Notes: generated by a model from the sequence alone, not told the origin. A DNA stretch of 64,000 nt from Thermotogota bacterium (GCA_036743375.1 DAINPP010000009.1:1030-65029); one strand, 5' to 3'; positions 1 through 63,938 are shown, counted from the first letter of the stretch. Numbers and translations are program-made.

Positions 1-732
1 AACGCAAAGAAGGAAAAAGAGGAATTTTTTGCCTCCATCAGTCATGATCTGAAGACACCTATGCACAGTATCATCGGATTTGCCCATCTGTTGCGTGAAT
101 CGTTGAAAAATCCCGAAGACATAGATTGTGTCAACAGTATCCTCGACTCTTCAGACAATATGATGAAACTGATAAACAATATCCTCGATTTTTCAAAGGC
201 GGAAGCGGGCCGGTTGACAATAGTCAACCAAAAGGTCGATTTACGCCGCTTAATAGAAAAAAATTGCAAAAATACCGTTCAAAGGCTCAAAGGGAAACAG
301 TTAGAAATCAATTGTCTGATAGAAGAAGAGCTTCCCGAATTCATCGTGACCGATCCCCTGAGAGTGAATCAGATCCTCATGAATCTTCTGGATAACGCTG
401 TAAAGTTTACAGAGAAAGGGGTCATCGCATTAAAAGTGAGTAGCGAGGTAAAAGACTTCACAAGAACAGGGATTCGTTTCCTCGTAAAAGACACGGGAAT
501 CGGAATGACACAGGAAGAGCTAAAGGGCATCAGGAGTTATTTCTCACAGGCAAACAACGAGATAGAAAGAAAATACGGTGGCAGCGGGCTTGGTCTTTTC
601 ATCACTTCCAAAATTCTCGAATTGATGGACAGCAGGCTTGAAATCAGCAGCCGCAAGGGTGAAGGAAGCGAATTCTCCTTCATGCTCCCTCTCGCAGAGT
701 CTCAGGATTTCCCCTCAACAACGATCGTCTGA
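1..732 (+). CDS. Sensor histidine kinase, C-terminal part (HisKA + HATPase_c); 5' end outside window
   Basis: Frame is open from base 1 (NAKKEKEEFFASISHDLKTPMHSIIGF, H-box), followed by N-box NLLDNAVKFT, G1 DTGIGM and G2 GGSGLGL. No receiver domain before the stop. Confidence 0.93.
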   Translation, partial: NAKKEKEEFFASISHDLKTPMHSIIGFAHLLRESLKNPEDIDCVNSILDSSDNMMKLINNILDFSKAEAGRLTIVNQKVDLRRLIEKNCKNTVQRLKGKQLEINCLIEEELPEFIVTDPLRVNQILMNLLDNAVKFTEKGVIALKVSSEVKDFTRTGIRFLVKDTGIGMTQEELKGIRSYFSQANNEIERKYGGSGLGLFITSKILELMDSRLEISSRKGEGSEFSFMLPLAESQDFPSTTIV

Positions 733-992
733 CAATCAGCTCCCTTTAACCGGTATGGAAGGATACTCTGATATTCCGCTGAAGAATACCATCTGTTCAA
801 GGATGCCCTGTCGGGAAACCTAATAATGACACATCTTCCTTCTGTCATTTCCCCTTCAAGGGTCTCTGGCGATTCATCCACCGCGAGGTATTCCCCATTG
901 TATTTCATAAAAATATCATCACAGTTTTCAAGATATCTTTGATAGGCCGCTTCATCATGAATATTGATCCGTGCAACAAAATAAACACTCAT
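702..992 (-). CDS. DUF1330 family protein (dimeric alpha-beta barrel)
   Basis: 96 aa, pattern Y..YL.....IF.KY.GEYLA......LEG....R.VII.FP......WY.S.EYQ.I...R typical of DUF1330. Its 3' end overlaps the kinase convergently. Confidence 0.85.
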   Translation of the reverse strand: MSVYFVARINIHDEAAYQRYLENCDDIFMKYNGEYLAVDESPETLEGEMTEGRCVIIRFPDRASLNRWYSSAEYQSILPYRLKGADCQTIVVEGKS

Positions 993-1007
993 ATCTTCAC
1001 CTTCGAT

Positions 1008-1865
1008 TCAGTATCTTTCAGAAAGCCTTTCGTCAAGCCGCCACTGAGGAGGTTCTCCGTTATCACTCCAGTATTCGCTGATTTCCGAAATTCTATCATC
1101 TGAAAAGCTGAAAACCGACATAACGATAAAACGCGCAGTTTCCCCTTCATCATGAACATTGACGATAGAAATGAGTTTTTTGTCGGAAGGATATAGGGTC
1201 TCAACCTCGGCAAACCATCTACCGGGATATTTTCTGTTGAAGCAGATATATTTCTCAGTACCGATAAACACCTCTCGCGTATTGGGGAGGCGGATTATTG
1301 CGCTGTCCTCCATGACCTGATGAAGTCGATCAAATTCCGCATCGTTTATATATTGCCAGAATTGCCTCACAAGGCCTTCTCTTTTTACCCGGTCATCCGC
1401 CTCGAGTCTGAGTGTCTCATTCTCTCTCTTCAACTCATCGTATTCCTCTTCTGACACCATACCGCAATCTTTAAAGAACTGCACGACATCTTCCTCGTTC
1501 ACATCGTGTTTTGCACCCATCTGACTGATGATACTGATCCCAAGATTCCGAGCGTACTGACCGTCGATGATCTTCTCATCGACAAGTTTAAACAGGATTT
1601 CGGAGAATTCCTCCGCATCTCCCTTCAGGAGCTTCTCTATAGAATTGATAACCTGATGAAAATACTGTCTGTCAATCGGTACATAGGTAGAACTGTTGAA
1701 TTTTGCCTTCGATATGACATCAAAGGTAACGTCCTCACCAAGATGGTTGAGAATCTTTAATTTCTCACCGTTATTTATCATGTTGAAGATGTCCTTTAAA
1801 CGAATAAACTTCCTGGAATCGGAATCATACAGCTTTCTGTTTTTATATTTTTTTATGATCCTCAA
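1008..1865 (-). CDS. Fusion: PhaR-type (PHB/PHA accumulation regulator) DNA-binding domain + helical linker + SnoaL/NTF2-like domain
   Basis: N-terminus RIIKKYKNRKLYDSDSRKFIRLKDIFNMINNGEKLKIL...GEDVT matches the PhaR N-terminal DNA-binding motif. C-terminus LVRQFWQYIN...IRLPNTREVF...YPGRW...ISEYWSDNGEPPQWR is SnoaL-like. Likely start is TTG at 1865 behind the SD AGGGGGA; the ORF track starts at 1913. Confidence 0.72.
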   Translation of the reverse strand: MRIIKKYKNRKLYDSDSRKFIRLKDIFNMINNGEKLKILNHLGEDVTFDVISKAKFNSSTYVPIDRQYFHQVINSIEKLLKGDAEEFSEILFKLVDEKIIDGQYARNLGISIISQMGAKHDVNEEDVVQFFKDCGMVSEEEYDELKRENETLRLEADDRVKREGLVRQFWQYINDAEFDRLHQVMEDSAIIRLPNTREVFIGTEKYICFNRKYPGRWFAEVETLYPSDKKLISIVNVHDEGETARFIVMSVFSFSDDRISEISEYWSDNGEPPQWRLDERLSERY

Positions 1866-1920
1866 ATGTCTTCCCCCTACAAAATTCTGCCCCATTATAA
1901 CCTGTTTTATCATAGAATCA

Positions 1921-1938
1921 AACCCCCTTTCGGGGGTT
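1921..1938 (-). terminator. GC hairpin between the LolA-like gene and the PhaR-SnoaL gene
   Basis: Minus strand AACCCCC-GAAA-GGGGGTT followed by a short T-rich tail; possible weak terminator or processing stem. Confidence 0.45.
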
Positions 1939-1946
1939 CAAAACGA

Positions 1947-2702
1947 TTAAAATTTCAATTTTGGTCTTGAGATATTCTTTGGTGAGAAAAAGGAATCGTC
2001 CATTCCGAGATCCGTTTCTATTTCTTCAAAAGAGATGGTTGTCTTTCCATTCGTATTGTTGTCAATAGCCGTTATAACCCATGGAACCGTCTTTCCGTTT
2101 ACTTCATTGTATTCGGAAATCTGTATGACTTTTGCCTCTTGATCTTCCCAATTCAGGAAAGTAACCTGATCAGGCAACATTTTATCCTTTGTAATACTGA
2201 TCCTCATTGCCGAATAGGACAATTTTCGATCATCGTTCTTTATCTCTATCACATAAACGAGTGAATCCTGCTTGACGATGGTCGCTCGTTTGGCTACATC
2301 CGAAATCTTGTAAAGAAGGGATAATTCACCGTAGGTAAAATCAGAATCCGCAAACTTTTCGTCCTCGGAGCTGGCCTGCATCTTCTTAACGCTTCTGAGT
2401 GCCGGCATATACATATAAGTCTCTCCGAATCCCTTGGAAAGAAGGGTGATATTCTTTTTCTCCTTTGGCTTCAAGAATCTGATGATGCTGTATATCATAT
2501 TTTCATCTTTTTTATAGATGTAGAATACAAACTCGCCACTTTGTGTTCCGGAATCGTTCTTTTGAGATAAAGAAATCGTGGCCTTCACGTCGTTAAGATG
2601 TTCATAATTTCCCGCCACTTCGTCAAGGATTTCCTGTGCTGTTGCCCCAAAAAACACACCCGTCATCAAAACCATTAAAATCAAGATCATTCCTTTTTTC
2701 AT
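1947..2702 (-). CDS. Outer-membrane lipoprotein-sorting (LolA-like) protein
   Basis: Signal peptide, then motif YMYMPALRSVKKM......KFADSDFTYGEL typical of the LolA-like proteins encoded beside MMPL genes. Confidence 0.85.
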   Translation of the reverse strand: MKKGMILILMVLMTGVFFGATAQEILDEVAGNYEHLNDVKATISLSQKNDSGTQSGEFVFYIYKKDENMIYSIIRFLKPKEKKNITLLSKGFGETYMYMPALRSVKKMQASSEDEKFADSDFTYGELSLLYKISDVAKRATIVKQDSLVYVIEIKNDDRKLSYSAMRISITKDKMLPDQVTFLNWEDQEAKVIQISEYNEVNGKTVPWVITAIDNNTNGKTTISFEEIETDLGMDDSFFSPKNISRPKLKF

Positions 2703-2717
2703 AATTCCCTCCTGTTA

Positions 2718-5360
2718 TTAGCCCTGCTTTATTTTCAGGGGATTTTTCAATATGGAAAAGACTGCGCTGAGAAAGACCAATGAGACAAAGGCGGCTACAA
2801 GCATAGAGATACCCGTCAGAGAACCAAATTCTCTCACGATCCCTATATCGGAAAAGGATAAGGCAAAGAAGCCGAATGCAACGGATAAGGCATTGTAAAT
2901 AACCGCCTTACCACTCGTTCTGAGTGTTCTTCTAACCGCATCGACCGAAATACCCGTTTTTGAATATTCTACTCTGAACCGGTTGACAAAATGGATGGCG
3001 TAATCAATCCCCGCTCCTATTGCGATGGCTGCTATAGAGATGGTGGCCGTGTTAAGTGAAATACCGAGCAACCCCATGATCTCGAAATTCAGAATAACGG
3101 TAAGGGCACTTGGTACAACACCAATAAGCGCAATTTTCAACGATCTAAACTGCAGCAGGAAGAGAAGGAACACTATCGCTATCGTCATGAACATGGATTC
3201 GTACTGATCGTTGAACAGCATATCCTGAATATGCAGCAATATCTGTTCAGAACCCGTCTGTGAAAGACTGACTGAGTCCCCCTCTCCGGGAAGATAAACC
3301 ATTTCCTGTGAAACGGGTAGAAGCCCTGTGATCGTTGTCCGTGAAACCTCCGTTCCAAGCAATTCTGCAAAATACGCGATTTTCCACTCCCTTATCTTGA
3401 CAAAAAGCAAATTGTCAAGATCGTAAGCCAGATCTTCATAATAGTCCGTCGTCCCTTCCAATGCGGCCGACAAAAGATCATAATCATAGTCATCCATCCG
3501 CAGCATGCTGTCCATAACGGCTGTCCTGTTAGTCTCATCGAGGAGATAGTCACCGAAATCATTTGCCTGTGAAATGAGTTCATCAAGTTCCTTCTCATTT
3601 TCAGAGAACAGGGTACCAATTGGCAAATTGAGCGTATTTAAAAATTTCTCCGCATAATCCGCTTCCGAAACATCAACGTATTCGGAATAGAAAGCGGATA
3701 TTTCCGCACTGTCAGCAGCCGAAATGTTCACCGTTTTAAAGGAAGCCGGTTTTGAATCAAGTATCTTCTGTATATCGTTTATAATTACTTCATTGCTCAT
3801 TCTGGATTCAACATCGAAGGAAACTTGAATGATCCCCCTTGTAAAATCCCTGTTTATCAGCTGATAAATGGCATCGTTGTTCTCCATGAAAAACCAGAGA
3901 TTATCGGTCTCATCCCTCGAAGAGGGGACACATTCCGTTCCGCAGAATGACTTTGACAACTTGGCCATGATATCGGCGATCGAATACGTCTCGTTAACAC
4001 CTTCTATCTGTAGTATTTCCTGCTCAACACCGTACATCATCTGCATCGTTACCGGATTTTTAAAATCCCCCCTCACATCGATAAATATGGCTCCGTTCCC
4101 ACCAAAATTGTCACCGATATATTCCGCATCACGGATGATTCTTTCATCCGGATTAATCGAATTGATAATATCCATATCCGTTTTAAGGTTGATGGCAAAC
4201 GGTACCATAACCGCAACGATTCCGAGAAGAATGCCGATGACGAGATAGGGATTGAGGAGTTTTTCAGGTATCTTCAATCCGGAGGCCTCACTTCTTGTCT
4301 TCCGCGTTTTCATCGCTTCAAGAACACTCGGTACAAATATCAATGCAAGAAGATTGGCAAGCAATACACCGACGGCGGAAAAGATTCCGAGCGTACACAC
4401 CGGGTTGATATCGGCTGTAAGCAGTGACAGAAAACCGACGGCAGTGGTCAGTCCGCTGAGTATGACCGCTATCCCGACATCTTTTTCGGTATTTATGATC
4501 TTCTCCTCCTTAGTCCCCGTTTCCTCCGTATATTTGTTGATAATATGGATGGAATAAGCCGTACCGATACTGATCAGCACAACCGGTATGACCGAATTGG
4601 CAACGGTCAGTGGGATATTCAGAAGGGAAATGATCCCCATGGTCCAGACAACACTGATAGAAACGGTTAAAAGCGGTAAGAAGGCTCCAAGAAAACTCCT
4701 GAAACTGATCAGCAACGTGAAGAAGATGATGAGGATGGCGATGGGAATCAACTTGGTCAGATTTCTTTTCGCTATACTTTCTACGGCGTTGTTAACGGGT
4801 GAGACACCGTAATAATGAAAATGATCCCCATACTTTTTATCAAGTGCTTCCCTGATCGTTCCGTAAACATTTTTCGTGTCCATCCCCTCTTTGATCGAAA
4901 AGGTGATAAGGGAAGATTTACCATCATTGGAGATGAATTTTCCGACGATGGAATCATGCTGAAGGACATCCCGTACGGTGATTGACCCATTTGCAATTTC
5001 GTCTGAAAGCGTTATCACTTCTATCCCATAATCTGAAATATTGACAATGGGCATATTACTTAAAGAGGATACACTCTGTACATCGGTCCTTTCAGATAAA
5101 TATCCCGTTATTTCATTGATTTTTATCAGATCCGTATTATCCTCGATATCCATGCCGATCATTACAAGCGATCCAATACCAAACTCTTCTGAAAGATCCG
5201 TAAAATGGGATACAAACGGATCGGATTGTGGTGGATATTTGGTGATATCATCATCAAATTTAAGTCCTAACGATTTCCAGCCAAAAAACAGTGTCAGTAA
5301 TGCCACCGCAATAATGAGCATCACCCTGTACCTGACAATAAATTTACCAAGTCTTTCCAT
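2718..5360 (-). CDS. MMPL/RND family transporter
   Basis: 880 aa with two TM repeats; motifs SIGTAYSIHI, GLTTAVGFLSL, GAGIDYAIHF, NALSVAFGF. Acidic insertion in the second extracytoplasmic loop. Confidence 0.93.
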   Translation of the reverse strand: MERLGKFIVRYRVMLIIAVALLTLFFGWKSLGLKFDDDITKYPPQSDPFVSHFTDLSEEFGIGSLVMIGMDIEDNTDLIKINEITGYLSERTDVQSVSSLSNMPIVNISDYGIEVITLSDEIANGSITVRDVLQHDSIVGKFISNDGKSSLITFSIKEGMDTKNVYGTIREALDKKYGDHFHYYGVSPVNNAVESIAKRNLTKLIPIAILIIFFTLLISFRSFLGAFLPLLTVSISVVWTMGIISLLNIPLTVANSVIPVVLISIGTAYSIHIINKYTEETGTKEEKIINTEKDVGIAVILSGLTTAVGFLSLLTADINPVCTLGIFSAVGVLLANLLALIFVPSVLEAMKTRKTRSEASGLKIPEKLLNPYLVIGILLGIVAVMVPFAINLKTDMDIINSINPDERIIRDAEYIGDNFGGNGAIFIDVRGDFKNPVTMQMMYGVEQEILQIEGVNETYSIADIMAKLSKSFCGTECVPSSRDETDNLWFFMENNDAIYQLINRDFTRGIIQVSFDVESRMSNEVIINDIQKILDSKPASFKTVNISAADSAEISAFYSEYVDVSEADYAEKFLNTLNLPIGTLFSENEKELDELISQANDFGDYLLDETNRTAVMDSMLRMDDYDYDLLSAALEGTTDYYEDLAYDLDNLLFVKIREWKIAYFAELLGTEVSRTTITGLLPVSQEMVYLPGEGDSVSLSQTGSEQILLHIQDMLFNDQYESMFMTIAIVFLLFLLQFRSLKIALIGVVPSALTVILNFEIMGLLGISLNTATISIAAIAIGAGIDYAIHFVNRFRVEYSKTGISVDAVRRTLRTSGKAVIYNALSVAFGFFALSFSDIGIVREFGSLTGISMLVAAFVSLVFLSAVFSILKNPLKIKQG

Positions 5361-5383
5361 AAGTTCCTCCTGATTCCTCGATT

Positions 5384-5400
5384 TTTACGCACTGCGTAAA
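5384..5400. promoter_or_regulatory. Palindromic operator 1 (TTTACGCA-C-TGCGTAAA)
   Basis: Perfect 8-bp inverted repeat around one central base, between the predicted -10 and the SD of the MMPL gene. Confidence 0.8.
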
Positions 5401-5408
5401 CATTGAGG

Positions 5409-5437
5409 ATACTACACCTGTTTTGTAACAGAAACAA
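5409..5437 (-). promoter_or_regulatory. Predicted sigma70-type promoter of the MMPL operon
   Basis: Minus strand TTGTTT (5437-5432), 17 nt spacer, TAGTAT (5414-5409) preceded by TG; lies exactly between the two palindromes. Confidence 0.5.
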
Positions 5438-5454
5438 GCCATCTCCTGTTAACA

Positions 5455-5471
5455 TTTACGCACTGCGTAAT
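5455..5471. promoter_or_regulatory. Palindromic operator 2 (TTTACGCA-C-TGCGTAAT)
   Basis: Second copy, 16/17 identical to operator 1, offset by 71 bp. Confidence 0.8.
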
Positions 5472-5549: not shown

Positions 5550-5585
5550 ATGAAAGAGGACTGGCCTCATGCCGTCCTCTTTCAT
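5550..5585 (-). terminator. Hairpin terminator downstream of the GH130 gene
   Basis: ATGAAAGAGGAC...GTCCTCTTTCAT 12-bp stem with an inner GGC/GCC pair. Confidence 0.65.
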
Positions 5586-8348: not shown

Positions 8349-9605
8349 TTAAAACAGCTCTCTGTTTATCTTCTTAATGGCGTTGTTGATAATCTGATCG
8401 GCCGGCATATCCACAAGATAGATCGGTTCGGTAAGATCCGTTGTCATGACGTCCTGCACTTCCGTTGTCTTTGAAATCAGTGCCGGAGGAACACTGTTCG
8501 GAACAGCCTCAGCATAGGCTTTCATCATCGGATTGGCCTCCAAAATTGGCTGGAACAGTTCATTGGTCGTCAGATCGGCTCTAACGGGCGGAAGACCTGT
8601 TATATCAAACCACAGTTCATCATGTTTCGGATCTGAATAGACCCATTTCATAAATTCCCATGCCGCTTCTTTATGCCTTGAATCTTTAAACATGACCATC
8701 CCTTTTGTATCGGCAAATGTCTTTATCGCCTGATCTTCCGGATAGCTATCCGGAACGGGCGGGTATGCCAGGATGATTTCAGAGGGAAAGATCTCCGGGA
8801 AAAGATTTTCAGCAGAAGGAATTTCCCATGGCCCCATCAGCTGACCCGCCAATCGGCCTGTGTAAAGTGGATTGTCCATCATGTCCATTGAAGTCCAGCC
8901 ATTGTCAAACAACTTCTGTCCATATTCAACAACTGCGTTACCGGCTTCATCGTTGAAGACCGCCTTGTTCTTTTTTGTGTCGATATACGGATGACCGTTA
9001 CTCGCCGCATAATAAAGCGTGATAAAATCATACCATCTGTCCCACCAGTTTTTCCCCTTCAGGTATTCGACAACGTAGACCTCTTTCGGCTTACAGATTT
9101 TTTCTGCCAGTTCATAAACTTCGCTGTAGGTTCTCGGAGGTGTGTCAAATCCCGCTTCGGCGAGCATGTCCTTTCTCCACCAGAAAAGCATCGGATTTGA
9201 ATAAATCGGAAAGACATATGACTTTCCCGAAAATTCCCAACCTTTGACGGCCTCTTCCATCCTTCTCGCGGCAAGGAGCTGATCAAAATCACTGAAATCG
9301 CTGAGCGGCACAAGCTGATCCGCTTCTATCAGCTGAGCGGCAAATCCACTGAATATGTTGGTACAGAGATCGGGGGCCTGTCCCGTAACGATGGCCGTTA
9401 ATATTGCCTCTTCAGAACTTCCCGATGCAGGAATGGTCTTCCATTCTATCTCTATCTCAGGATGAACACCTTTCCATTCTTCCAGAATTGCCTTCCAGAA
9501 TTGTTCCTGATACATGTTCGGGGCCGTCCACAACACTAATTTCTCCGCCAGTACCGGCGTTAACAACATTACCAAGAGAATAAGAATCACAAGATATTTC
9601 TTCAC
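8349..9605 (-). CDS. Sugar ABC transporter solute-binding protein (family 1)
   Basis: Signal peptide MKKYLVILILLVMLLTPVLA, family-1 SBP features (AIVTGQAPD, YVFPIYSNPMLFWWRKD, AAWEFMKW). GTG start at 9605 behind GGAGG. Confidence 0.92.
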   Translation of the reverse strand: MKKYLVILILLVMLLTPVLAEKLVLWTAPNMYQEQFWKAILEEWKGVHPEIEIEWKTIPASGSSEEAILTAIVTGQAPDLCTNIFSGFAAQLIEADQLVPLSDFSDFDQLLAARRMEEAVKGWEFSGKSYVFPIYSNPMLFWWRKDMLAEAGFDTPPRTYSEVYELAEKICKPKEVYVVEYLKGKNWWDRWYDFITLYYAASNGHPYIDTKKNKAVFNDEAGNAVVEYGQKLFDNGWTSMDMMDNPLYTGRLAGQLMGPWEIPSAENLFPEIFPSEIILAYPPVPDSYPEDQAIKTFADTKGMVMFKDSRHKEAAWEFMKWVYSDPKHDELWFDITGLPPVRADLTTNELFQPILEANPMMKAYAEAVPNSVPPALISKTTEVQDVMTTDLTEPIYLVDMPADQIINNAIKKINRELF

Positions 9606-9630
9606 CCGCAACACCTCCATATGTGTTAAG

Positions 9631-10658: not shown

Positions 10659-10945
10659 CAATTATACACAAATAAAAAAGGCTATTCTATTCTTTTTTCA
10701 ACGATTTATCATAAATTATAACTGATTATAACCATTTATATAAATATTTCTTCTTATTTGGGAATATTATGAATGATATAAGCTTCTTTCTTTATATTGC
10801 ATCTTATTTCTTTGATATTCATCAATATTCTTCCAAAAAATAAGTTTTTCGAATCTAATGAACGATATCGAATCAATTTCTGACTATTTTGTTGGATATG
10901 AGTGTTTGCCGAAATCATAGGCAGAGTTATATCATGTTTATGTTG

Positions 10946-10959
10946 TGAAAGCGTTTACA
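10946..10959. promoter_or_regulatory. LacI-type operator TGAAAGCGTTTACA
   Basis: Same motif as 10645-10658 (reverse complement differs at one position), about 30 bp upstream of the divergent 10990 gene. Confidence 0.78.
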
Positions 10960-10989
10960 TATTTTGGCTATATTAAGGAGGAATTTGAA

Positions 10990-12342
10990 ATGAAGAAGAA
11001 TCGTATTGCTATCGTTTTATTCATCATTATTGCGGTCTGTCTGACTTTTGCGGAGACAGTCGAACTCCGGGTTAATGCGGAAACACTCACCGGTGATCCG
11101 GTTGCATACCGAATCTATATGTACGAAGCACTCGAACTGATCCCCGAAGATTTTGATGCCAATTGGGATTCCCTCAGGGTCTTTGATGCGGAGGAAAATG
11201 AAATTCCCTATCAGATCGACGATCTTGACGGAAACGGCAAACTGTCAGCACATGATATGCTCAGTTTCTTCATGACAGGAACGGCAAAAATGGTTATCAG
11301 TGATGATCTCTCATTGGATAGACCTGAATACGACGCAGTTCTCAGCGTAAACGAAGTAGATGGAGAATTCATCGTTACTGGCGGAGAACTCGATGCTGAA
11401 GTAAAGATCGACAATCATGGATTTGCAAATTACGTTAATTACAGGAATTTTGAAGAAGCCGTATACACCGAACTCGGAATCATGAGAATAGCCGGTTGGA
11501 AAGGCAGCACATTCTGGGCCGATGGGCAGCTTGGGAACAAACATGAAGAAAAGACTTCCTATAATTTTAAGGTGAATGAAATGGAATTCGTCAATTCCGG
11601 TCCCGTTGGTGCCACTTTTGTTTCCGATCTCGAATCAGAGACATTTATAGGCGTTCATCAGATCCTTATCACACAGGTCATGGCAAATGGCGAATGTTTT
11701 GTGGAATCCAATATCATCTTTGAAACCTACACGGATCTCATGAAATTACAGGAGATGTCCACAAAGGCGCTCACAAGCGTAGATATGGAGACACTCAAGC
11801 ATATCATGCCCCTGCCGAGAAGACTTGTATGGGCGGAACAGCTCAATTCAAGCTCATTTGATTACTGGAACGACAGAGAGGCTATAGAAATCGTGAATGG
11901 ACAGCCTTATGTCTGTTTTGATGCACTCGATGCCATGAAACCACTCTGGTGGGGAGCAACCTACATCTACTCCTCCCCGGAAAGCTGGAGGGGAAATTAC
12001 TCTGAAGATCTCGGTGCCTGTGCTTATTCCATTTCCGTTGAAAAGCCGCTTGTATATGCCAATTTCAACGATTTTGTCATGGGCAACACATGGGTATACG
12101 AAAGTAGAGAGTTCAGAGATGGTCTCTTCAGGTGGATGCCCGCGGAATTCAATGCCTTTGAGACAACCGAGGGAAACGTTTCAACGGATACCGTTGACTG
12201 TGTCGCTCATTTCTTCCCGGGAGATAACGTCGTATTCAGAAAGGTGTACGGATTCACCGATGGTTTCGCCAACACAGCGGATGCCATAGGATATCTTGAA
12301 GCAAGGGCAGTGGAGATCGAATCGATCACACTTGCGGAATAA
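10990..12342 (+). CDS. Secreted protein of unknown function (N-terminal segment resembles DUF4861-type proteins)
   Basis: SD AAGGAGG then ATG 10990; signal peptide ending CLTFA; motif LRVFDAEENEIPYQIDDLDGNG (DxDGNG Ca-binding-like); aromatic-rich beta-type C-terminus. Confidence 0.75.
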   Translation: MKKNRIAIVLFIIIAVCLTFAETVELRVNAETLTGDPVAYRIYMYEALELIPEDFDANWDSLRVFDAEENEIPYQIDDLDGNGKLSAHDMLSFFMTGTAKMVISDDLSLDRPEYDAVLSVNEVDGEFIVTGGELDAEVKIDNHGFANYVNYRNFEEAVYTELGIMRIAGWKGSTFWADGQLGNKHEEKTSYNFKVNEMEFVNSGPVGATFVSDLESETFIGVHQILITQVMANGECFVESNIIFETYTDLMKLQEMSTKALTSVDMETLKHIMPLPRRLVWAEQLNSSSFDYWNDREAIEIVNGQPYVCFDALDAMKPLWWGATYIYSSPESWRGNYSEDLGACAYSISVEKPLVYANFNDFVMGNTWVYESREFRDGLFRWMPAEFNAFETTEGNVSTDTVDCVAHFFPGDNVVFRKVYGFTDGFANTADAIGYLEARAVEIESITLAE

Positions 12343-12585: not shown

Positions 12586-14886
12586 ATGAAAATCAAGAAA
12601 ATTCTGATTCTGACACTGACAGTTCTTCTGACAACGGCCGCTTTTTCAGCTGTTTTTCCTCAAAGGGAATCCCATCTCATGTTCCTCAGAAAAGAAATGT
12701 CCGTCGAAGGCAACCTGAAGACAGGTTATATCATCTATGCAGATAAAAGGGAAGGCAGATATGTGCATACCGACGCCGGGAGTGAAGGAATCTCATGTGT
12801 CGATGATACGGCCAGAGCGGGTATTTATTTCCTGAACATGTATGAAAACACAAGGGAAAAAGACAGTCATGCCGCACAGAGATACCGGGAACTCTTCCTT
12901 GAAACCCTTGATTTCTGCGATGCATTCAGAACCCGAACAGGGGATTATTATAATTTCATCTTTGAAAACGGTGAAATCAACAAAAGGGGAATCACAAGCA
13001 GAACCTCTGCAAACTGGTGGGCCTTGAGGGCTTTATGGCTACTGTCACAGTCTTTAACCGTCATTGAAGATTCCGAAGATTTCAACACGGAGAAGATTTA
13101 TGATGAGGCGGAGCAGACTGCAACCCTGTTTGTTCAGGAGCTTGATGCGACCGGGCTGATCAGGGGATACGCCGATCTTTCCGCGCTTTATGTCATATCA
13201 CTTGCCAACCTCTACGAATTTTCAGGAGAATCAAAATGGCTTGAGTTGATCCGTCAGGTCAGCGATGGTCTGCTCGGTAAAAGAGCCCATTTTATCTTCG
13301 ATGGGATCATCGACGAGGGAACGGAGAAATTTATTTTTCACAGCTGGGGAAGCAGGCAGGTTCAAGCTCTCGCAATGGCATTTACAGCCACACACGACGA
13401 CAAATACCTTGAGGCGGCAAAAGACATGGCCGATTCTCTGTACACTCACATGATCAACCTCGGGCCTTTCTATGATTATGATACAGAAAATTTCAACCTG
13501 TTTTCACAGATCGCCTATGGAACGGAAGCCGCTGTGACCTCGCTTTATCAACTGTATCAGATCACAGGGGATGAAGCGTATGCCTGGCTTCTCGCACTCA
13601 ACGCGGGGTTTTTCAGCGGGAATAATCAGCTGCAAAGGGCCATGACAGGAGAAAATGGGGAAGGCTATGACGGACTCGAGAAGGTCTTCATCAACACGAA
13701 TTCCGGTGCGGAATCCACCATCTCCTATCTACTTTCCATGTCTCTTGTAGACAGATTACCCGAAACCATTCGAAGATTTGCTGAAATGAAGCCGGTTCAT
13801 CAATCCGAACCGCTCCTGATAGAAGCGGAAAACATGGATTCAGGATTATCGAGTTGCGATACCGAGAACATAAACGGATTCAACGGTGTATCGGGCCGTT
13901 CATTCAAGCTGAAGGAAACCTTTACACTTAATCGGGGTACCTATGATATCTTCCTGTTTGGAACAGGGCTGAAGGATTCTGAGATCAAATTCTATCTGGG
14001 TAAAGAAACCATAGGAAAAAATATCCTGTCCGATACGGATCATTATCTCGGCAGAATAAAAAACACAGCGGATGAGGAAGTCAGAATCATTTTTTCAGGT
14101 AAATCGGAAGAAAAAATCTTTCTCAATCAGATCTTATGCCTGCCCGTCATCGAATATCAGGTGTTCAATGTTAACGGCATTAATTACCTTGCCGCATTCA
14201 ACACCTCTGATGAAGAGATGGAATTTAACTATCAGCCGATTGAAAAAAAGGGGTATCTCCTCTCGGAAGCCAATTTCGATATTGATGAAAAAGAGACTGC
14301 TGAGCAATCCGTCTATGAAGTCGGTTCAACCGAAGTCCATTCCGGATATATCGTTCTTAAACTGAATGCCTTCATGGATAACAACGGCATAGGCATGCCG
14401 GTTAATCCCGGAAATTACGATAATCTCGGAGGAAAGGCGGGGGCTTATTATCCGGAGGAAAAAATTCGCGGACTGCTTACAGGTGGCTTCCTGTATCCTG
14501 ACGGTATTCCTTTCAGGATCTTACTGGAAGAAAACGACAATCTCATCGCCGGTGGACAACGCTTGATGATAAACGAGACCGGAACGACACTTTATGTTTT
14601 CGGAAGCTGCGATCACGGTAGTTTTAACGGTGATCTTGAAATAGGCTATTCTGATGGTGAAAGAGAATATACCTCATTGAGTTTCCCTGACTGGTGTTCT
14701 GAGATCCGGGATGAAGATTCTATCGCTCTTCAGGTGCCATACAGATACGATTCCAGCGACCTTGAGGAGTGGATAGCGCCAAAGATCGCGATATGCAAAA
14801 TCCCACTGAAGGGAAAGAAGATCGAATCGATCACAATACCTGAAATTCCGACAATGCATCTTTTCGGAATAACACTCGGAAAATAA
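12586..14886 (+). CDS. Secreted multidomain putative glycoside hydrolase: six-hairpin (alpha/alpha)6-like domain + CBM-like + C-terminal beta domain
   Basis: Signal peptide; motifs EGISCVDDTARA, WWALRALW, SWGSRQ, QIAYG, GYDGL, NSGAESTISYLLS; then LLIEAEN (CBM6/35-like start) and DNNG...NYDNLG...YYPEE...GIPF...PDW, reminiscent of alpha-mannosidase accessory domains. Confidence 0.65.
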   Translation: MKIKKILILTLTVLLTTAAFSAVFPQRESHLMFLRKEMSVEGNLKTGYIIYADKREGRYVHTDAGSEGISCVDDTARAGIYFLNMYENTREKDSHAAQRYRELFLETLDFCDAFRTRTGDYYNFIFENGEINKRGITSRTSANWWALRALWLLSQSLTVIEDSEDFNTEKIYDEAEQTATLFVQELDATGLIRGYADLSALYVISLANLYEFSGESKWLELIRQVSDGLLGKRAHFIFDGIIDEGTEKFIFHSWGSRQVQALAMAFTATHDDKYLEAAKDMADSLYTHMINLGPFYDYDTENFNLFSQIAYGTEAAVTSLYQLYQITGDEAYAWLLALNAGFFSGNNQLQRAMTGENGEGYDGLEKVFINTNSGAESTISYLLSMSLVDRLPETIRRFAEMKPVHQSEPLLIEAENMDSGLSSCDTENINGFNGVSGRSFKLKETFTLNRGTYDIFLFGTGLKDSEIKFYLGKETIGKNILSDTDHYLGRIKNTADEEVRIIFSGKSEEKIFLNQILCLPVIEYQVFNVNGINYLAAFNTSDEEMEFNYQPIEKKGYLLSEANFDIDEKETAEQSVYEVGSTEVHSGYIVLKLNAFMDNNGIGMPVNPGNYDNLGGKAGAYYPEEKIRGLLTGGFLYPDGIPFRILLEENDNLIAGGQRLMINETGTTLYVFGSCDHGSFNGDLEIGYSDGEREYTSLSFPDWCSEIRDEDSIALQVPYRYDSSDLEEWIAPKIAICKIPLKGKKIESITIPEIPTMHLFGITLGK

Positions 14887-57570: not shown

Positions 57571-58488
57571 ATGAATAAATTTTTAAAATACGTGGGCTCT
57601 CTGTTCGTATTAATACTTCTCGCGGTGTTCTTTTCCGGTTGTGATGGAATGCTGAGAAAAGAGGAATCGTTTGAATCTTCCTTTCATATAACCAACAATA
57701 CCGACTATTCCCTATTGGATGTGGATTCACGAAATGGATCAATCGAGGTTATCCCGTGGAACGAAAACTTTTTTAAGATAGAAGGTAAAAAGTTTATTCA
57801 GGGAAGCGGCAACCTGGACGAATTGATAGAAAAAGTACAGATCAGGGAAAAAGAGATCGGATCGGTTATTCGGATTTATATCGATTTTCCGGAGAGCAAT
57901 AATTTCCTCAAAAATACCAGCTACGGGGCCAATCTCACGATTAGTGTACCGACTGACATCTTCAGTTCTCTCGAAAAGATCGATCTAGATTCATCAAATG
58001 GCCCTGTTTACCTCTCCAGTTTCACAGGAAGTATAGTGGCGGATACCTCAAACAGTTCGATGAAATTTGAAGGCTGCACCGGAGACCTCAAGGCAAAAAG
58101 TACGAATGGATCTATCTCACTGAATAACGTAAAAGGTCAGATAGATGTGACTACGAGTAACGCCTCCATTCAGTTGAACGATTGTTTTCTTACCGGTTCA
58201 TCCAACCACTTCCAAACTACCAATGGATCCATCGACGGGGATTTCACCCCCCCTTTATCCGGTAACACAACCTTCAGTACCAGTAACAGCTGGGTCACAC
58301 TCAGGGTGCCATCTATCTCAAACATCAACTTCTCCGCAAGAACAAGTAACGGCTCCATATCCACTGAAAATCTCCTTGTAAAATTGACCCAGGACTCAAA
58401 AAACAGTAAAAACGGGATGGTCAACGAAGGTGGGGCAAAGATAGATATCAAATCCTCAAATGGAAACGTAAAGATCATCGGAGAATAA
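57571..58488 (+). CDS. DUF4097-type beta-strand-repeat lipoprotein
   Basis: Lipobox FSGC; about eight repeats of the form (T/S)(S/T)N(G/S/A)x(I/V/M). Confidence 0.85.
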   Translation: MNKFLKYVGSLFVLILLAVFFSGCDGMLRKEESFESSFHITNNTDYSLLDVDSRNGSIEVIPWNENFFKIEGKKFIQGSGNLDELIEKVQIREKEIGSVIRIYIDFPESNNFLKNTSYGANLTISVPTDIFSSLEKIDLDSSNGPVYLSSFTGSIVADTSNSSMKFEGCTGDLKAKSTNGSISLNNVKGQIDVTTSNASIQLNDCFLTGSSNHFQTTNGSIDGDFTPPLSGNTTFSTSNSWVTLRVPSISNINFSARTSNGSISTENLLVKLTQDSKNSKNGMVNEGGAKIDIKSSNGNVKIIGE

Positions 58489-60367: not shown

Positions 60368-60835
60368 TTACTGCTGCTCTGTCAGCGAAAGGAAAAATTT
60401 ATCACCGGTATTCTGGCAATCTATCCGGATGATCGAAAAAGCCGTTCTGAACGCGGCGGACCCTTTTTTTCCATTTTTCATGATTCGGTGATACGTCTGC
60501 AGGACCTGTTCGTTCAGATAAAAAAGGCCATTTCGATGAAGCCAGAACGTGATCAGCAGTTCCGTATCCGAATTTCTCCTGAGTAAAGGTGGATTATCCT
60601 GTTCTATAGTAATATTGCTCATTTCAGGCACATAATACATATCGACAGTTCCCCCCATCGCGGAATAATGATACATTGTTTTATAAACCACGTTGGCATT
60701 ATCGATATAACTGTAATACTCCAATCCGTAATCGGTCCATATGTCGAGTATCCCATCGTTTATATAAAACGAAAAAACCATCAGTGGAAACAGAAGTGTA
60801 ATCAGCAGCAGAATTTTTACTCTCAAAATTTTCAC
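60368..60835 (-). CDS. Hypothetical exported protein
   Basis: Open frame with signal-peptide-like start (GTG 60835: MKILRVKILLLITLLFPLMVFS); no family recognised. Confidence 0.5.
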   Translation of the reverse strand: MKILRVKILLLITLLFPLMVFSFYINDGILDIWTDYGLEYYSYIDNANVVYKTMYHYSAMGGTVDMYYVPEMSNITIEQDNPPLLRRNSDTELLITFWLHRNGLFYLNEQVLQTYHRIMKNGKKGSAAFRTAFSIIRIDCQNTGDKFFLSLTEQQ

Positions 60836-60951
60836 ACCTTGATCAAAATGTAGATTATATATTTCTATAAAACCTCTACTTATTATATCAGATTTTTTCA
60901 TGTTATAATTAACTATAAATGCTGTATACAGTTTGAAAGGAATTGATTAAA

Positions 60952-62229: not shown

Positions 62230-63190
62230 TGAAATCAAGGCAAAAAAAGAGATGAGAATCGTATTCATGGGAACACCGGATTTTTCAGCGTATCATCTTC
62301 AAAGCCTCATCGATGCGGGGTATAACATTGTCGGTGTCTTTTCACAACCGGATAAGATTTCAGGTAGAGGGGGAAAAACGAGACCGACCCCGGTCAAAGT
62401 TACGGCAATGAACGCGGGGATTGATGTTTTTCAGCCTAAGTCGGTCAACCTGAAGCAGGGTTTTTCTCTTCTTGAGCAACTGAAGCCGGATGTAATTATA
62501 GTCGTCGCATTCGGTAAAATCCTGAAGGATAAGGTCATTTCACTTCCCGGTATGGGCATTTACAACGTTCACGCCTCTCTTCTTCCTGCATACAGAGGAG
62601 CCGCTCCCATACAGCGTTCGATTGAACAGGGCGATGAAAGGACCGGCGTGGCTATCATGAAGATCGCCACTGAACTCGATGCCGGAGATGTGGCAAAGAT
62701 GTCTGAAGTTTCCATAGAACCGGCTGATAACTTTGAAACCGTCCACGACAAACTGCAGGAAGCCGGTGCCACGCTACTGATTGATTTTCTCGAAGAATTG
62801 AGAACCGGTACCGTTTCCTTCAGGAAACAGGCACATGAGAAGGCAACCTATGCGGCCAAGATAGAAAAGGGTGAATTGATTCTTGACTGGACCGAAACCG
62901 CGGAGAAACTGCATAACAAGATCAGGGCATTCGATCCCGTTCCCTGTGCGAGGACGCTGCTTGACGGCCAAACGGTAAAACTTAAAGGCTCTCTCGCAAC
63001 CGAAAAGGGAGATGACACAGCTGTTCCCGGTACAATCCTTGACATAACAAAAAAAGGGGCATGGATTCAATGTGGAAGTGGAAAGATCCTTATTAAAGAT
63101 ATACAGCTGCCGTCAAAACAGTTTACGACGTTTCAGGAGGCCAAAAACGGTAGAAAAATAGAGATAGGGAAGTGTTTTGACCGTGTATAA
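62222..63190 (+). CDS. fmt: Methionyl-tRNA formyltransferase
   Basis: IVFMGTPDF, SQPD, VVAFG, NVHASLLP.YRGAAPIQ, LDAGD. Confidence 0.97.
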   Translation: MNDEIKAKKEMRIVFMGTPDFSAYHLQSLIDAGYNIVGVFSQPDKISGRGGKTRPTPVKVTAMNAGIDVFQPKSVNLKQGFSLLEQLKPDVIIVVAFGKILKDKVISLPGMGIYNVHASLLPAYRGAAPIQRSIEQGDERTGVAIMKIATELDAGDVAKMSEVSIEPADNFETVHDKLQEAGATLLIDFLEELRTGTVSFRKQAHEKATYAAKIEKGELILDWTETAEKLHNKIRAFDPVPCARTLLDGQTVKLKGSLATEKGDDTAVPGTILDITKKGAWIQCGSGKILIKDIQLPSKQFTTFQEAKNGRKIEIGKCFDRV

Positions 63191-63191
63191 G

Positions 63192-63938
63192 ATGAAAATG
63201 AGTTATTCCAAACTCACAACATTCGAGCAATGTCCACTTAAATTCAAGTTTCAGTATATCAACCGTTTTCCGACAAGTTCAAGTCCCGCGTTACTGCTCG
63301 GGCAGACCATACACAGTGCGCTGGATAAATATTTCTCCTTTTCTGAAGACCGGCGTTCACTCACAATTCTTAAAAACCTGTTCAGAAGTGAGTGGAAAAC
63401 GGAAAGAAACAAACTCAGAGAACAGGGTAGCCTTGAGATGGATAAAGAAACAGAGGTTGAACACGGAAAACGCGGTCTGATCATGCTCGAGAACTTTTAC
63501 AGTAGTAGTCTTAACTTTGAGCCCGTCCAGCGGGAAGAGTTCATCGAGGCGGATCTGAAAGATGACATGCCGTTTCTCGGAAGGATAGACAGACTGGATA
63601 AGGTGCGCATAGATGGCGTGGAAGGCTATAAAGTCGTCGATTATAAAACGGGAAAGCTGAGTGAAAGGTTCATAGACTTTATCCAGCTCTTCACCTATGC
63701 CTGGCTCATGAACGAACAGGGGCACAAGGTCATCGCCTCCTCGTTTTATTATCTCGAACAGAATAAGCTCATAGAAAAACCGCTGACAGAGGAAATCTAC
63801 GAACAGACGAGAAACAAGCTGATCGAAAAATGTATTCCTGTTTACGAGGCACTGGAGACGGATACTTTTGATCCAAAGGAATCCGCACTCTGTCCCTATT
63901 GTGATTATATAAGGATGTGTCCTCTCAAGGAAGCATAA
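63192..63938 (+). CDS. PD-(D/E)XK nuclease, RecB/AddB-like, with 1+3 Cys Fe-S motif
   Basis: SYSKL..F.QCP, GQTIH, GRIDRLD, VVDYKTG, QL..Y, CPYCDY...C. ATG 63192 lies 1 nt after the fmt stop. Confidence 0.88.
   Translation: MKMSYSKLTTFEQCPLKFKFQYINRFPTSSSPALLLGQTIHSALDKYFSFSEDRRSLTILKNLFRSEWKTERNKLREQGSLEMDKETEVEHGKRGLIMLENFYSSSLNFEPVQREEFIEADLKDDMPFLGRIDRLDKVRIDGVEGYKVVDYKTGKLSERFIDFIQLFTYAWLMNEQGHKVIASSFYYLEQNKLIEKPLTEEIYEQTRNKLIEKCIPVYEALETDTFDPKESALCPYCDYIRMCPLKEA

Follow-up and report, generated by a model that had tools for sequence, protein, structure and literature searches.

The 64,000-nucleotide (64-kb) stretch of a Thermotogota bacterium analysed here (GCA_036743375.1 DAINPP010000009.1:1030-65029; the window, numbered from its first letter) carries an MMPL-family transporter gene of the resistance-nodulation-division (RND) type, a LolA-like gene and a gene for a regulator with PHB_acc_N, the N-terminal DNA-binding domain of PhaR, the regulator of polyhydroxyalkanoate (PHA) metabolism; twin palindromes, which are putative operators, precede the MMPL gene. 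The observation holds and goes far past what chance would produce. Judged by sequence, it is well supported that these genes represent an undescribed regulator-transporter module based on a PhaR-type domain, and the module, a cassette conserved in some of the Thermotogota, is rather probably an exporter that carries hydrophobic molecules or lipids to the envelope under the control of a repressor. The searchable literature holds no description of PHB_acc_N together with MMPL, nor of either in Thermotogota, and within that literature an earlier note on this DNA was right to call the combination undescribed.

The cassette belongs to four co-oriented open reading frames (ORFs) on the minus strand (5360..2718, 2702..1947, 1913..1008 and 992..702), with gaps of 15, 33 and 15 nucleotides (nt) when the ATG at 1913 is taken as the start of the regulator. 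ORF calls and Pfam assignments thus agree with the earlier description of four same-strand genes separated by short gaps; the twin palindromes of that description were also recovered, as was the absence of a TetR regulator and a PHA synthase among the ORFs scanned. No TetR domain was found among the scanned ORFs of the 64 kb or beside related loci, and neither these ORFs nor the flanks of the fetched Thermotogota loci include a PHA synthase, a phasin or another pha gene.

The palindromes lie in a 16-nt repeat, TTTACGCACTGCGTAA, that occurs twice in the window (5384-5399 and 5455-5470), each copy holding the 15-nt palindrome TTACGCA-C-TGCGTAA, which is of the type TTAYGC-N3-GCRTAA. With up to one mismatch allowed, this pattern has three matches in the 64 kb, against 0.31 expected, and none of 100 shuffles reaches three. 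A lone copy with one mismatch (TTACTCGCCGCATAA, 8998-9012) lies within a sugar-binding-protein gene (8349..9620) and is most likely a chance occurrence. In nine Thermotogota loci the pattern is present exactly twice, 64-71 nt apart and just upstream of MMPL (Table 1), and the stretches fetched for these loci hold no further copy outside the MMPL upstream region. The invariant columns of a six-way promoter alignment are essentially the operator bases, and between the operators the alignment keeps TA..AT hexamers and TTAACA/TTTACA blocks; the proximal operator, O2, falls over the expected transcription start of MMPL. A scan of the genome contig collection for the twin-operator pattern returned seven unrelated repeat or hairpin loci, none with PhaR_N, MMPL or LolA. 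The scan missed Thermosipho africanus and T. melanesiensis, whose loci (L019 and L021) match the pattern locally; it is therefore uninformative on the distribution of the operators, and absence there is not absence in nature.

It could be argued that the palindromes are sites of another factor, or mere hairpin or repeat elements, and that the PhaR-like protein regulates something else: in one scan 5456-5470 came up as a plus-strand, terminator-like hairpin, and unrelated repeat elements of other phyla contain the pattern as well. However, stems of six to seven pairs, mostly A/T, and loops of 1-3 nt make poor terminators, no plus-strand gene ends at this place, and the position, copy number and sequence of the palindromes are kept across nine loci despite changing surroundings and flanking genes. 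The motif also corresponds to PhaR boxes and to the promoter boxes of distant PHB_acc_N genes, described below, and we consider this alternative highly doubtful.

Of the regulators near the operator pair, only the PHB_acc_N protein is always present; a MarR gene adjoins the cassette only in L012, and no other regulator is consistently adjacent. Binding sites of this family have been described in several bacteria. The footprint of PhbF of Herbaspirillum seropedicae is TG[N]TGC[N]3GCAA, the PhaR box of Rhodobacter sphaeroides is CTGC[N]3GCAG, and at phaP of Ralstonia eutropha PhaR has two sites, of which the first is at the transcription start and the other lies upstream of the -35 (PMC3206438). 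Mutagenesis in Bradyrhizobium diazoefficiens identified GC-N3-GC as essential, and full binding requires two boxes (PMC10888616). The operator core of the Thermotogota loci, YGC-N3-GCR, is of the published PhaR box type TGC-N3-GCA. A related box, GTGCA-N-YGCATAA (TGC-N3-GCA plus TAA), sits between the TTGACT -35 and the -10 of the regulator's own promoter in three distant PHB_acc_N loci, which are chance finds and not a systematic sample: metagenome-assembled genomes (MAGs) of a Thermodesulfobacteriota (L013), a Bacteriovoracaceae (L014) and a deltaproteobacterial (L016) member. L013 has a second box upstream of the -35, and the GCATAA half-site is common to Thermosipho operators. At L013:9920-13988 a 694-amino-acid (aa) MMPL gene lies 17 nt behind the gene of a 169-aa PHB_acc_N regulator, and an ORF of 456 aa without Pfam match comes next, which suggests that the PhaR_N-MMPL partnership may extend beyond Thermotogota. 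The L014 and L016 regulators adjoin instead a short-chain dehydrogenase/reductase gene (possibly PhaB-like) and fumarase genes. Binding of the PHB_acc_N regulator to the twin operators is likely on these comparisons.

The window regulator nevertheless stands outside PhaR proper. It reaches 38.6 bits against TIGR01848 (cut-off 109.45), through the N-domain only, and no PHB_acc (PF05233) domain was matched at E <= 0.1, yet it keeps the PhaR-type DNA-binding domain, operator type and two-site layout. A canonical PhaR in control of PHA granule metabolism, which the Thermosipho homologues would be by their database names, would fit the presence of the PHB_acc_N domain and the source annotation "transcriptional regulator of phasin expression". 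It is contradicted by the score below the TIGR01848 cut-off, by the lack of PF05233, by the absence of phasin, PhaC or pha genes from the window and the fetched loci, and by the position of the operators at the MMPL promoter, so that we judge it exceedingly improbable. What the cassette regulator shares with PhaR, PhbF and AniA is the N-terminal DNA-binding domain, the (T/C)GC-N3-GC(A/G) core and two sites bracketing the promoter, and in the known cases the regulator is titrated by something hydrophobic. It differs from them in having no PHB_acc, no linked pha genes and an MMPL/LolA-like target, and also in its clade-specific middle domain, its NTF2 cone (in the window) and half-sites extended to TTAYGC.

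The order MMPL, LolA-like, regulator is found in every intact related locus (L001, L004, L011, L012, L030, L031, L019, L021, L022 and L032, in addition to the window's own contigs), the regulator with the PhaR N-domain thus being syntenic with MMPL and LolA-like genes in all of them. L011 is a Petrotogaceae MAG, L012 is a Thermotogae MAG, L019, L021 and L022 are from Thermosipho, and L032 is of Thermosipho type. The flanking genes vary by lineage while the core order holds, and therefore the unit behaves, or travels, as a cassette. The module of four parts proposed earlier is accordingly reduced to its core of MMPL, LolA-like and PhaR-N proteins: neither the SnoaL fusion nor DUF1330 is a defining part. 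DUF1330 (Pfam E 7.3e-27) is a lineage-specific gene outside the conserved unit: it is confined to the window's own contigs, and L001, L004, L011, L012, L019-L022, L030 and L031 lack it. Downstream of the regulator there is a convergent DUF3089 gene in L004 and other genes in L012 and L030. In L011 an insertion sequence element (an HTH_Tnp_1 ORF and an rve integrase ORF, 10905-12052) lies directly downstream of the regulator, and the split in the LolA-like ORF (209 aa) is probably due to a long-read frameshift.

In the Thermosipho and Thermosipho-type loci the LolA-like gene and the regulator are separated by an extra gene of approximately 400 aa, which the window, L011 and L012 lack. Its product has a signal peptide, no Pfam match and an aromatic C-terminus (...GVKVSY), features of a probable outer-membrane beta-barrel. 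Two Fervidobacterium assemblies hold what appear to be deletion remnants of the cassette in the same state (L020:6177-7477 and L034:7177-8477), in which one operator and the promoter are joined directly to the 3' two-thirds of a frameshifted 400-aa gene, followed by the regulator; these remnants have lost MMPL, LolA-like and the second operator. As for the searches, the genome contigs gave no match to single-sequence queries with the regulator or the LolA-like protein, and relatives were found with alignment queries; a metagenome search with the regulator alignment gave distant N-domain matches only.

The predicted pump matches Pfam MMPL (PF03176) with an E value of 5.8e-52 in two stretches, together with a Sterol-sensing match and a weak ACR_tran match, and its hydrophobic segments, read from the translation, follow the RND layout of 12 transmembrane segments (1+5/1+5) with two large extracytoplasmic loops. 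The best NCBIfam match is TIGR00921 HAE3 (277.6 bits, under the cut-off of 351.9), followed by MMPL and HpnN models, and the sequence matches in the PDB are MmpL4/5, HpnN and MmpL3. Its partner is a clear LolA_like protein (Pfam PF17131, TP_0789-like; E 2.4e-31, 109.3 bits against a cut-off of 30), with orthologues that are 58-65% identical and PDB relatives (3bk5, 9tp6, 4z48 and 3buu) whose annotations name outer membrane lipoprotein sorting or the LolA superfamily. The N-terminus, MKKGMILILMVLMTGVFFGATAQE, has a signal peptide and no lipobox cysteine, and the protein is therefore predicted to be soluble and periplasmic, not a lipoprotein. An export role is suggested by this signal peptide and by the lipid-export precedents of RND/LolA-like pairs, MmpL and HpnN.

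In Actinobacteria the regulators of MmpL are TetR or MarR proteins. The cassette resembles the actinobacterial MmpL3/4/5/11 systems and HpnN in that an MMPL-family RND pump with presumed hydrophobic or amphiphilic envelope substrates is accompanied by an adjacent dedicated repressor; it differs from the actinobacterial operons in that PHB_acc_N takes the place of TetR or MarR as the regulator and a LolA-like protein that of MmpS as the partner, and in that the host is a diderm member of the Thermotogota. By analogy, it may work like the TetR- or MarR-controlled MmpL operons, with another regulator family. A second precedent is the aryl-polyene (APE) set of ApeM (RND), ApeL (LolA-like) and ApeN (LolB-like), for which lipid delivery to the outer membrane has been proposed (PMC8253772). 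The pairing of an RND/MMPL pump with a LolA-like carrier is common to both, whereas the cassette lacks linked biosynthetic genes and a LolB-like protein and possesses a dedicated repressor and conserved operators.

Export of envelope components is not the only role that has to be weighed for such a pump. It might be an ordinary xenobiotic or solvent efflux pump, whose local repressor senses toxic hydrophobes and whose LolA-like partner is a mere periplasmic adaptor. The pump is weakly similar to AcrB-type RND permeases, a local repressor with promoter-overlapping operators is typical of drug-efflux operons, and the neighbours in L012 and L030 are genes of the multidrug-sensor type (GyrI-like, AraC-Cass2 and MerR-GyrI). 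We nonetheless regard efflux as unlikely, given that the best matches of the pump are lipid and siderophore exporters (MmpL4/5, HpnN and HAE3) and not multidrug pumps, that no gene for a membrane-fusion protein or a TolC-like channel is linked, and that the constant partner shares with the APE lipid export set a lipid-carrier fold of the LolA-like kind.

In Thalassolituus oleivorans the MMPL-LolA-like fusion TOL_3187 and the adjacent predicted porin TOL_3188, which are another precedent for lipid delivery by RND and LolA-like proteins, were induced 42-fold, or exclusively, on n-C28 (PMC6304351). The cassette could, on this pattern, handle or take up exogenous, very hydrophobic substrates (long-chain alkanes, waxes or fatty acids) and be induced by them, and both the probable beta-barrel gene of the Thermosipho loci and the origin of relatives from Petrotogaceae and from digester or oil-type metagenomes would be compatible with this. 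The likeness consists in the combination of MMPL with LolA-like, to which Thermosipho adds its probable beta-barrel; the differences are that the cassette encodes separate proteins and not a fusion, and that it belongs to another phylum. Characterised RND/MMPL proteins export and do not import, and no catabolic genes for alkanes or fatty acids are linked in the loci examined, for which reasons uptake seems improbable.

The regulator combines its DNA-binding domain with a helical middle domain, a long helix and a C-terminal cone (Table 1). PHB_acc_N (PF07879) is matched at residues 19-67 of the 301-aa ORF (E 1.5e-12, 47.9 bits against a cut-off of 25), and in the AF2 model this domain is beta-rich, not a classical helix-turn-helix, with a pLDDT of approximately 91; a solved structure is not known for any DNA-binding domain of the PhaR type. 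A phasin-like middle domain, hinted at by a MAFFT alignment, was rejected because it had no HHalign support. For the C-terminus the Pfam match to SnoaL_2 (23.5 bits) is under the cut-off of 27; the model, with a pLDDT of 94-98, confidently predicts an alpha+beta cone fold of the SnoaL/NTF2 kind. Its phmmer match is 4lmi, with an E value of 1.2e-8, and Foldseek gives a probability of 1.00 to 4lmi, 3en8, 4kvh and ketosteroid isomerases and also matches LEH and SnoaL folds; the closest solved relatives are proteins without assigned function. A cone at the C-terminus of a transcription regulator is likewise present in extracytoplasmic function (ECF) sigma factors with SnoaL_2 (TIGR02960 / PRK08241 type), whose models match the window SnoaL domain weakly (E 0.0012 and 0.023); the window regulator has a PhaR-type DNA-binding part and is not a sigma factor.

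Most members of the family lack the cone. They measure approximately 160 aa (N-domain, middle domain and coiled coil), come from Thermosipho africanus (161 aa), T. melanesiensis, T. japonicus, T. globiformans and Fervidobacterium, and are named "regulator of phasin expression" or "PhaR" in databases. In a first search the fused regulator was found in three clusters among 5.8 billion proteins; a profile search gave five SnoaL-fused clusters (P0001-P0003, P0153 and P0154) and approximately 25 short-form clusters without SnoaL, and 1.84 billion representatives contained only one full-length fused-regulator cluster plus short forms. The nearest relatives, L012/P0004 and L030/P0155, are 65-69% identical over the core and end right after the coiled coil, so the cone is accessory even within the clade. 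The window cone is 51% identical to the stand-alone 128-aa protein P0006, with which it shares the motifs YPGRWFA and EYW..G..PQWR. It is also nearer to stand-alone P0008 (48%; 120-130-aa class) and to the NUDIX-SnoaL fusion P0007 than to the orthologous cones, a mismatch that may reflect either fast divergence in sister lineages or domain replacement.

The single promoter for all four genes that had been proposed did not hold, since a conserved terminator-like hairpin and an internal promoter follow the LolA-like gene; the cassette region of the window consists, on these predicted elements, of two transcription units. The window hairpin (approximately 1918-1941) has a predicted stability of -16.7 kcal/mol (z -3.3), and hairpins that differ in sequence and keep their pairing occupy the same place in L001, L004, L011, L012, L030 and L031, with compensatory changes in 6 of 11 pairs and stabilities across the window clade of -14.6 to -18 kcal/mol (z -3.3 to -4.6). 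The internal promoter, TTGATT-16-TATAAT, is the best sigma-70-like site on the minus strand between 600 and 5700, its -10 box GTTATAAT is invariant in the seven loci of the window clade, and no operator lies near it in this clade. All seven share the order LolA-like stop, GC hairpin, U-rich tail, GTTATAAT, Shine-Dalgarno and TTG, and in all seven the TTG is immediately 5' of RIIKKYKNRKLYD. In the window this start is TTG 1865, with the Shine-Dalgarno GGGGG at 1877..1873, and on this conservation the regulator is read as 285 aa from TTG 1865 and not as 301 aa from ATG 1913. The latter start was rejected, being unconserved and placed inside the spacer of the conserved internal promoter. An alternative RNA fold, in which CCCCC of the hairpin pairs with the Shine-Dalgarno of the regulator, was not significant (z -1.0). 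The DUF1330 gene of the window, which starts 15 nt after the regulator stop, is probably co-transcribed with the regulator. The arrangement is different in Thermosipho: in L021, L022 and L032 the regulator ends the operon after a gap too short for a separate promoter and would therefore be autoregulated, and in T. africanus a hairpin directly precedes the regulator Shine-Dalgarno, without a -10 box.

Taken together, these elements can be arranged into a working scheme. The regulator would bind, most likely as an oligomer, to O1, upstream of the -35, and to O2, over the transcription start, and occupancy of the operators would shut off the MMPL and LolA-like genes. An inducer, probably hydrophobic, would free the repressor; the helical domain would sense it, as would the NTF2 pocket in regulators that have one. 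The proton-driven MMPL pump would then pull hydrophobic or amphiphilic cargo from the inner membrane and pass it to the soluble LolA-like carrier and onward to the outer envelope, where, in Thermosipho, the predicted beta-barrel protein could receive it. In the window clade, the hairpin and the operator-free promoter would uncouple the regulator gene from its targets. The sequence comparison itself shows the domains, the synteny, the conserved operators and where they lie, the hairpin with the internal promoter, and that SnoaL and DUF1330 are accessory; that the regulator binds these operators and represses, what induces the system, what it carries and in which direction are all steps that we infer. 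The same applies to the sensing of lipids or hydrophobes, the export to the toga and the tie to the membrane lipids of Thermotogota, which the earlier note had put forward and which we, too, infer. A more specific version, which we offer only tentatively and to which we assign a low probability, is a lipid-homeostasis circuit in which the PhaR-type repressor directly senses a native membrane lipid, or a lipid-like molecule, that builds up in the inner membrane, just as its relatives sense polyester granules by their hydrophobic surface, and switches on the MMPL/LolA-like conveyor (with the beta-barrel in Thermosipho) to the toga.

Several observations weigh against the proposal of a repressor-gated exporter. 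A strict sigma-70 consensus scan did not call the MMPL promoter, whose hexamers are weak and which for this reason is a putative one, and the operator spacing of 64-71 nt corresponds to no whole number of helical turns. The middle domain, the presumed sensor, is modelled with low confidence (pLDDT 41-62), the core model of the DNA-binding and middle domains has no significant PDB match by Foldseek, and the HHalign homology to PhaR_N-phasin and other PHB_acc_N proteins stops at residue 55. The cone is only 22-36% identical among orthologous fusions and is dispensable in sister lineages, which makes its sensing role uncertain. Finally, no biosynthetic genes are linked to the cassette, and thus the transport substrate is not deducible.

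Table 1. Coordinates of the cassette features in the window and of the operator pairs and the extra gene in related loci.
Feature	Coordinates	Strand	Details
Distal operator O1, putative	5456..5470	.	TTACGCAGTGCGTAA on gene strand; upstream of -35 region
Proximal operator O2, putative	5385..5399	.	identical to O1; 9 nt downstream of putative -10; 71 nt from O1
Putative MMPL-LolA-like promoter	5409..5437	-	-35 TTGTTT (5437..5432), 17-nt spacer, -10 TAGTAT (5414..5409)
Alternative -35 of MMPL promoter	5452..5447	-	TTAACA
MMPL-family RND transporter	2718..5360	-	880 aa; Shine-Dalgarno GGAGG 5370..5366
LolA-like protein	1947..2702	-	251 aa; starts 15 nt after MMPL stop, Shine-Dalgarno GGAGGG
Terminator-like GC hairpin	1918..1941	-	GAACCCCC-GAAA-GGGGGUUU then GAUUCU; directly after LolA-like stop
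Regulator's own promoter, predicted	1894..1921	-	TTGATT, 16 nt, TATAAT; scores 10/12
Regulator	1008..1865	-	285 aa; PHB_acc_N, helical middle domain, long helix, NTF2/SnoaL cone
PHB_acc_N DNA-binding domain	aa 1-57, nt 1695-1865	-	Pfam, NCBIfam, AF2
Clade-specific helical middle domain	aa ~60-135	-	AF2
Long (coiled-coil) helix	aa 139-174	-	AF2
NTF2/SnoaL-like cone	aa 175-285, nt 1011-1343	-	AF2, Foldseek, phmmer
DUF1330 gene	702..992	-	96 aa; 15 nt after regulator stop
Upstream terminator, predicted	5550..5585	-	perfect 12-nt inverted repeat then TTTTCT
Operators, window	5385 / 5456		spacing 71 nt
Operators, L012	6337 / 6408		spacing 71 nt
Operators, L011	6385 / 6455		spacing 70 nt
Operators, L030	4376 / 4446		spacing 70 nt
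Operators, L031	4383 / 4453		spacing 70 nt
Operators, T. africanus (L019)	2268 / 2335		spacing 67 nt
Operators, T. melanesiensis (L021)	2321 / 2386		spacing 65 nt
Operators, L022	2343 / 2407		spacing 64 nt; second site with one mismatch
Operators, L032	1845 / 1910		spacing 65 nt
Extra ~400-aa gene	L019:5728-6960, L021:5782-6984, L022:5774-6964, L032:5337-6569		between LolA-like and regulator

The limits of the cassette region are set by its neighbours. The inverted repeat with its T-run at 5550-5585 is likely the terminator of the upstream GH130/sugar-ABC operon and the upstream limit of the MMPL unit, which would therefore begin at approximately 5480. At the other end, the 3' end of DUF1330 overlaps by 31 nt (702-732) a convergent histidine-kinase ORF (61..732, plus strand) that is truncated by the window edge; the full gene, of 680 aa, is present in L005. 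Elsewhere in the window, four ORFs have no Pfam family (E <= 1e-5/1e-6): 10945-12342 (465 aa), 12586-14886 (766 aa), 57571-58488 (305 aa), which lies directly upstream of FlgN and flagellin genes, and 60368-60901 (177 aa). A PD-(D/E)XK / Cas4-like nuclease ORF is located at the right edge (63177-63938), and no CRISPR array or further cas gene was noticed beside it among the ORFs scanned. The 64 kb contain no Rfam families or tRNAs.

PhaR-family regulators are usually treated, and automatically annotated, as regulators of PHA and phasins. Thermotogota are, to our knowledge, not known to make PHA, and the same domain and operator type are found there at MMPL and LolA-like genes; the phasin-regulator annotations in Thermosipho are therefore probably wrong. 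The variable C-terminus of the regulator, with no extra domain in some members and an NTF2 cone in others, amounts to a natural experiment in the addition of sensor modules to a repressor, and the cultivable species Thermosipho africanus and T. melanesiensis possess the sharply defined operator-regulator pair. Little is understood of how Thermotogota bring hydrophobic components to their outer envelope, and MMPL and LolA-like proteins, with the beta-barrel where it is present, are a concrete candidate for the route. If the lipid-homeostasis circuit were true, it would reveal a lipid route from the inner to the outer membrane in a deep-branching diderm, and the PHB_acc_N family would be a general sensor of hydrophobic material and not one specific to PHA.

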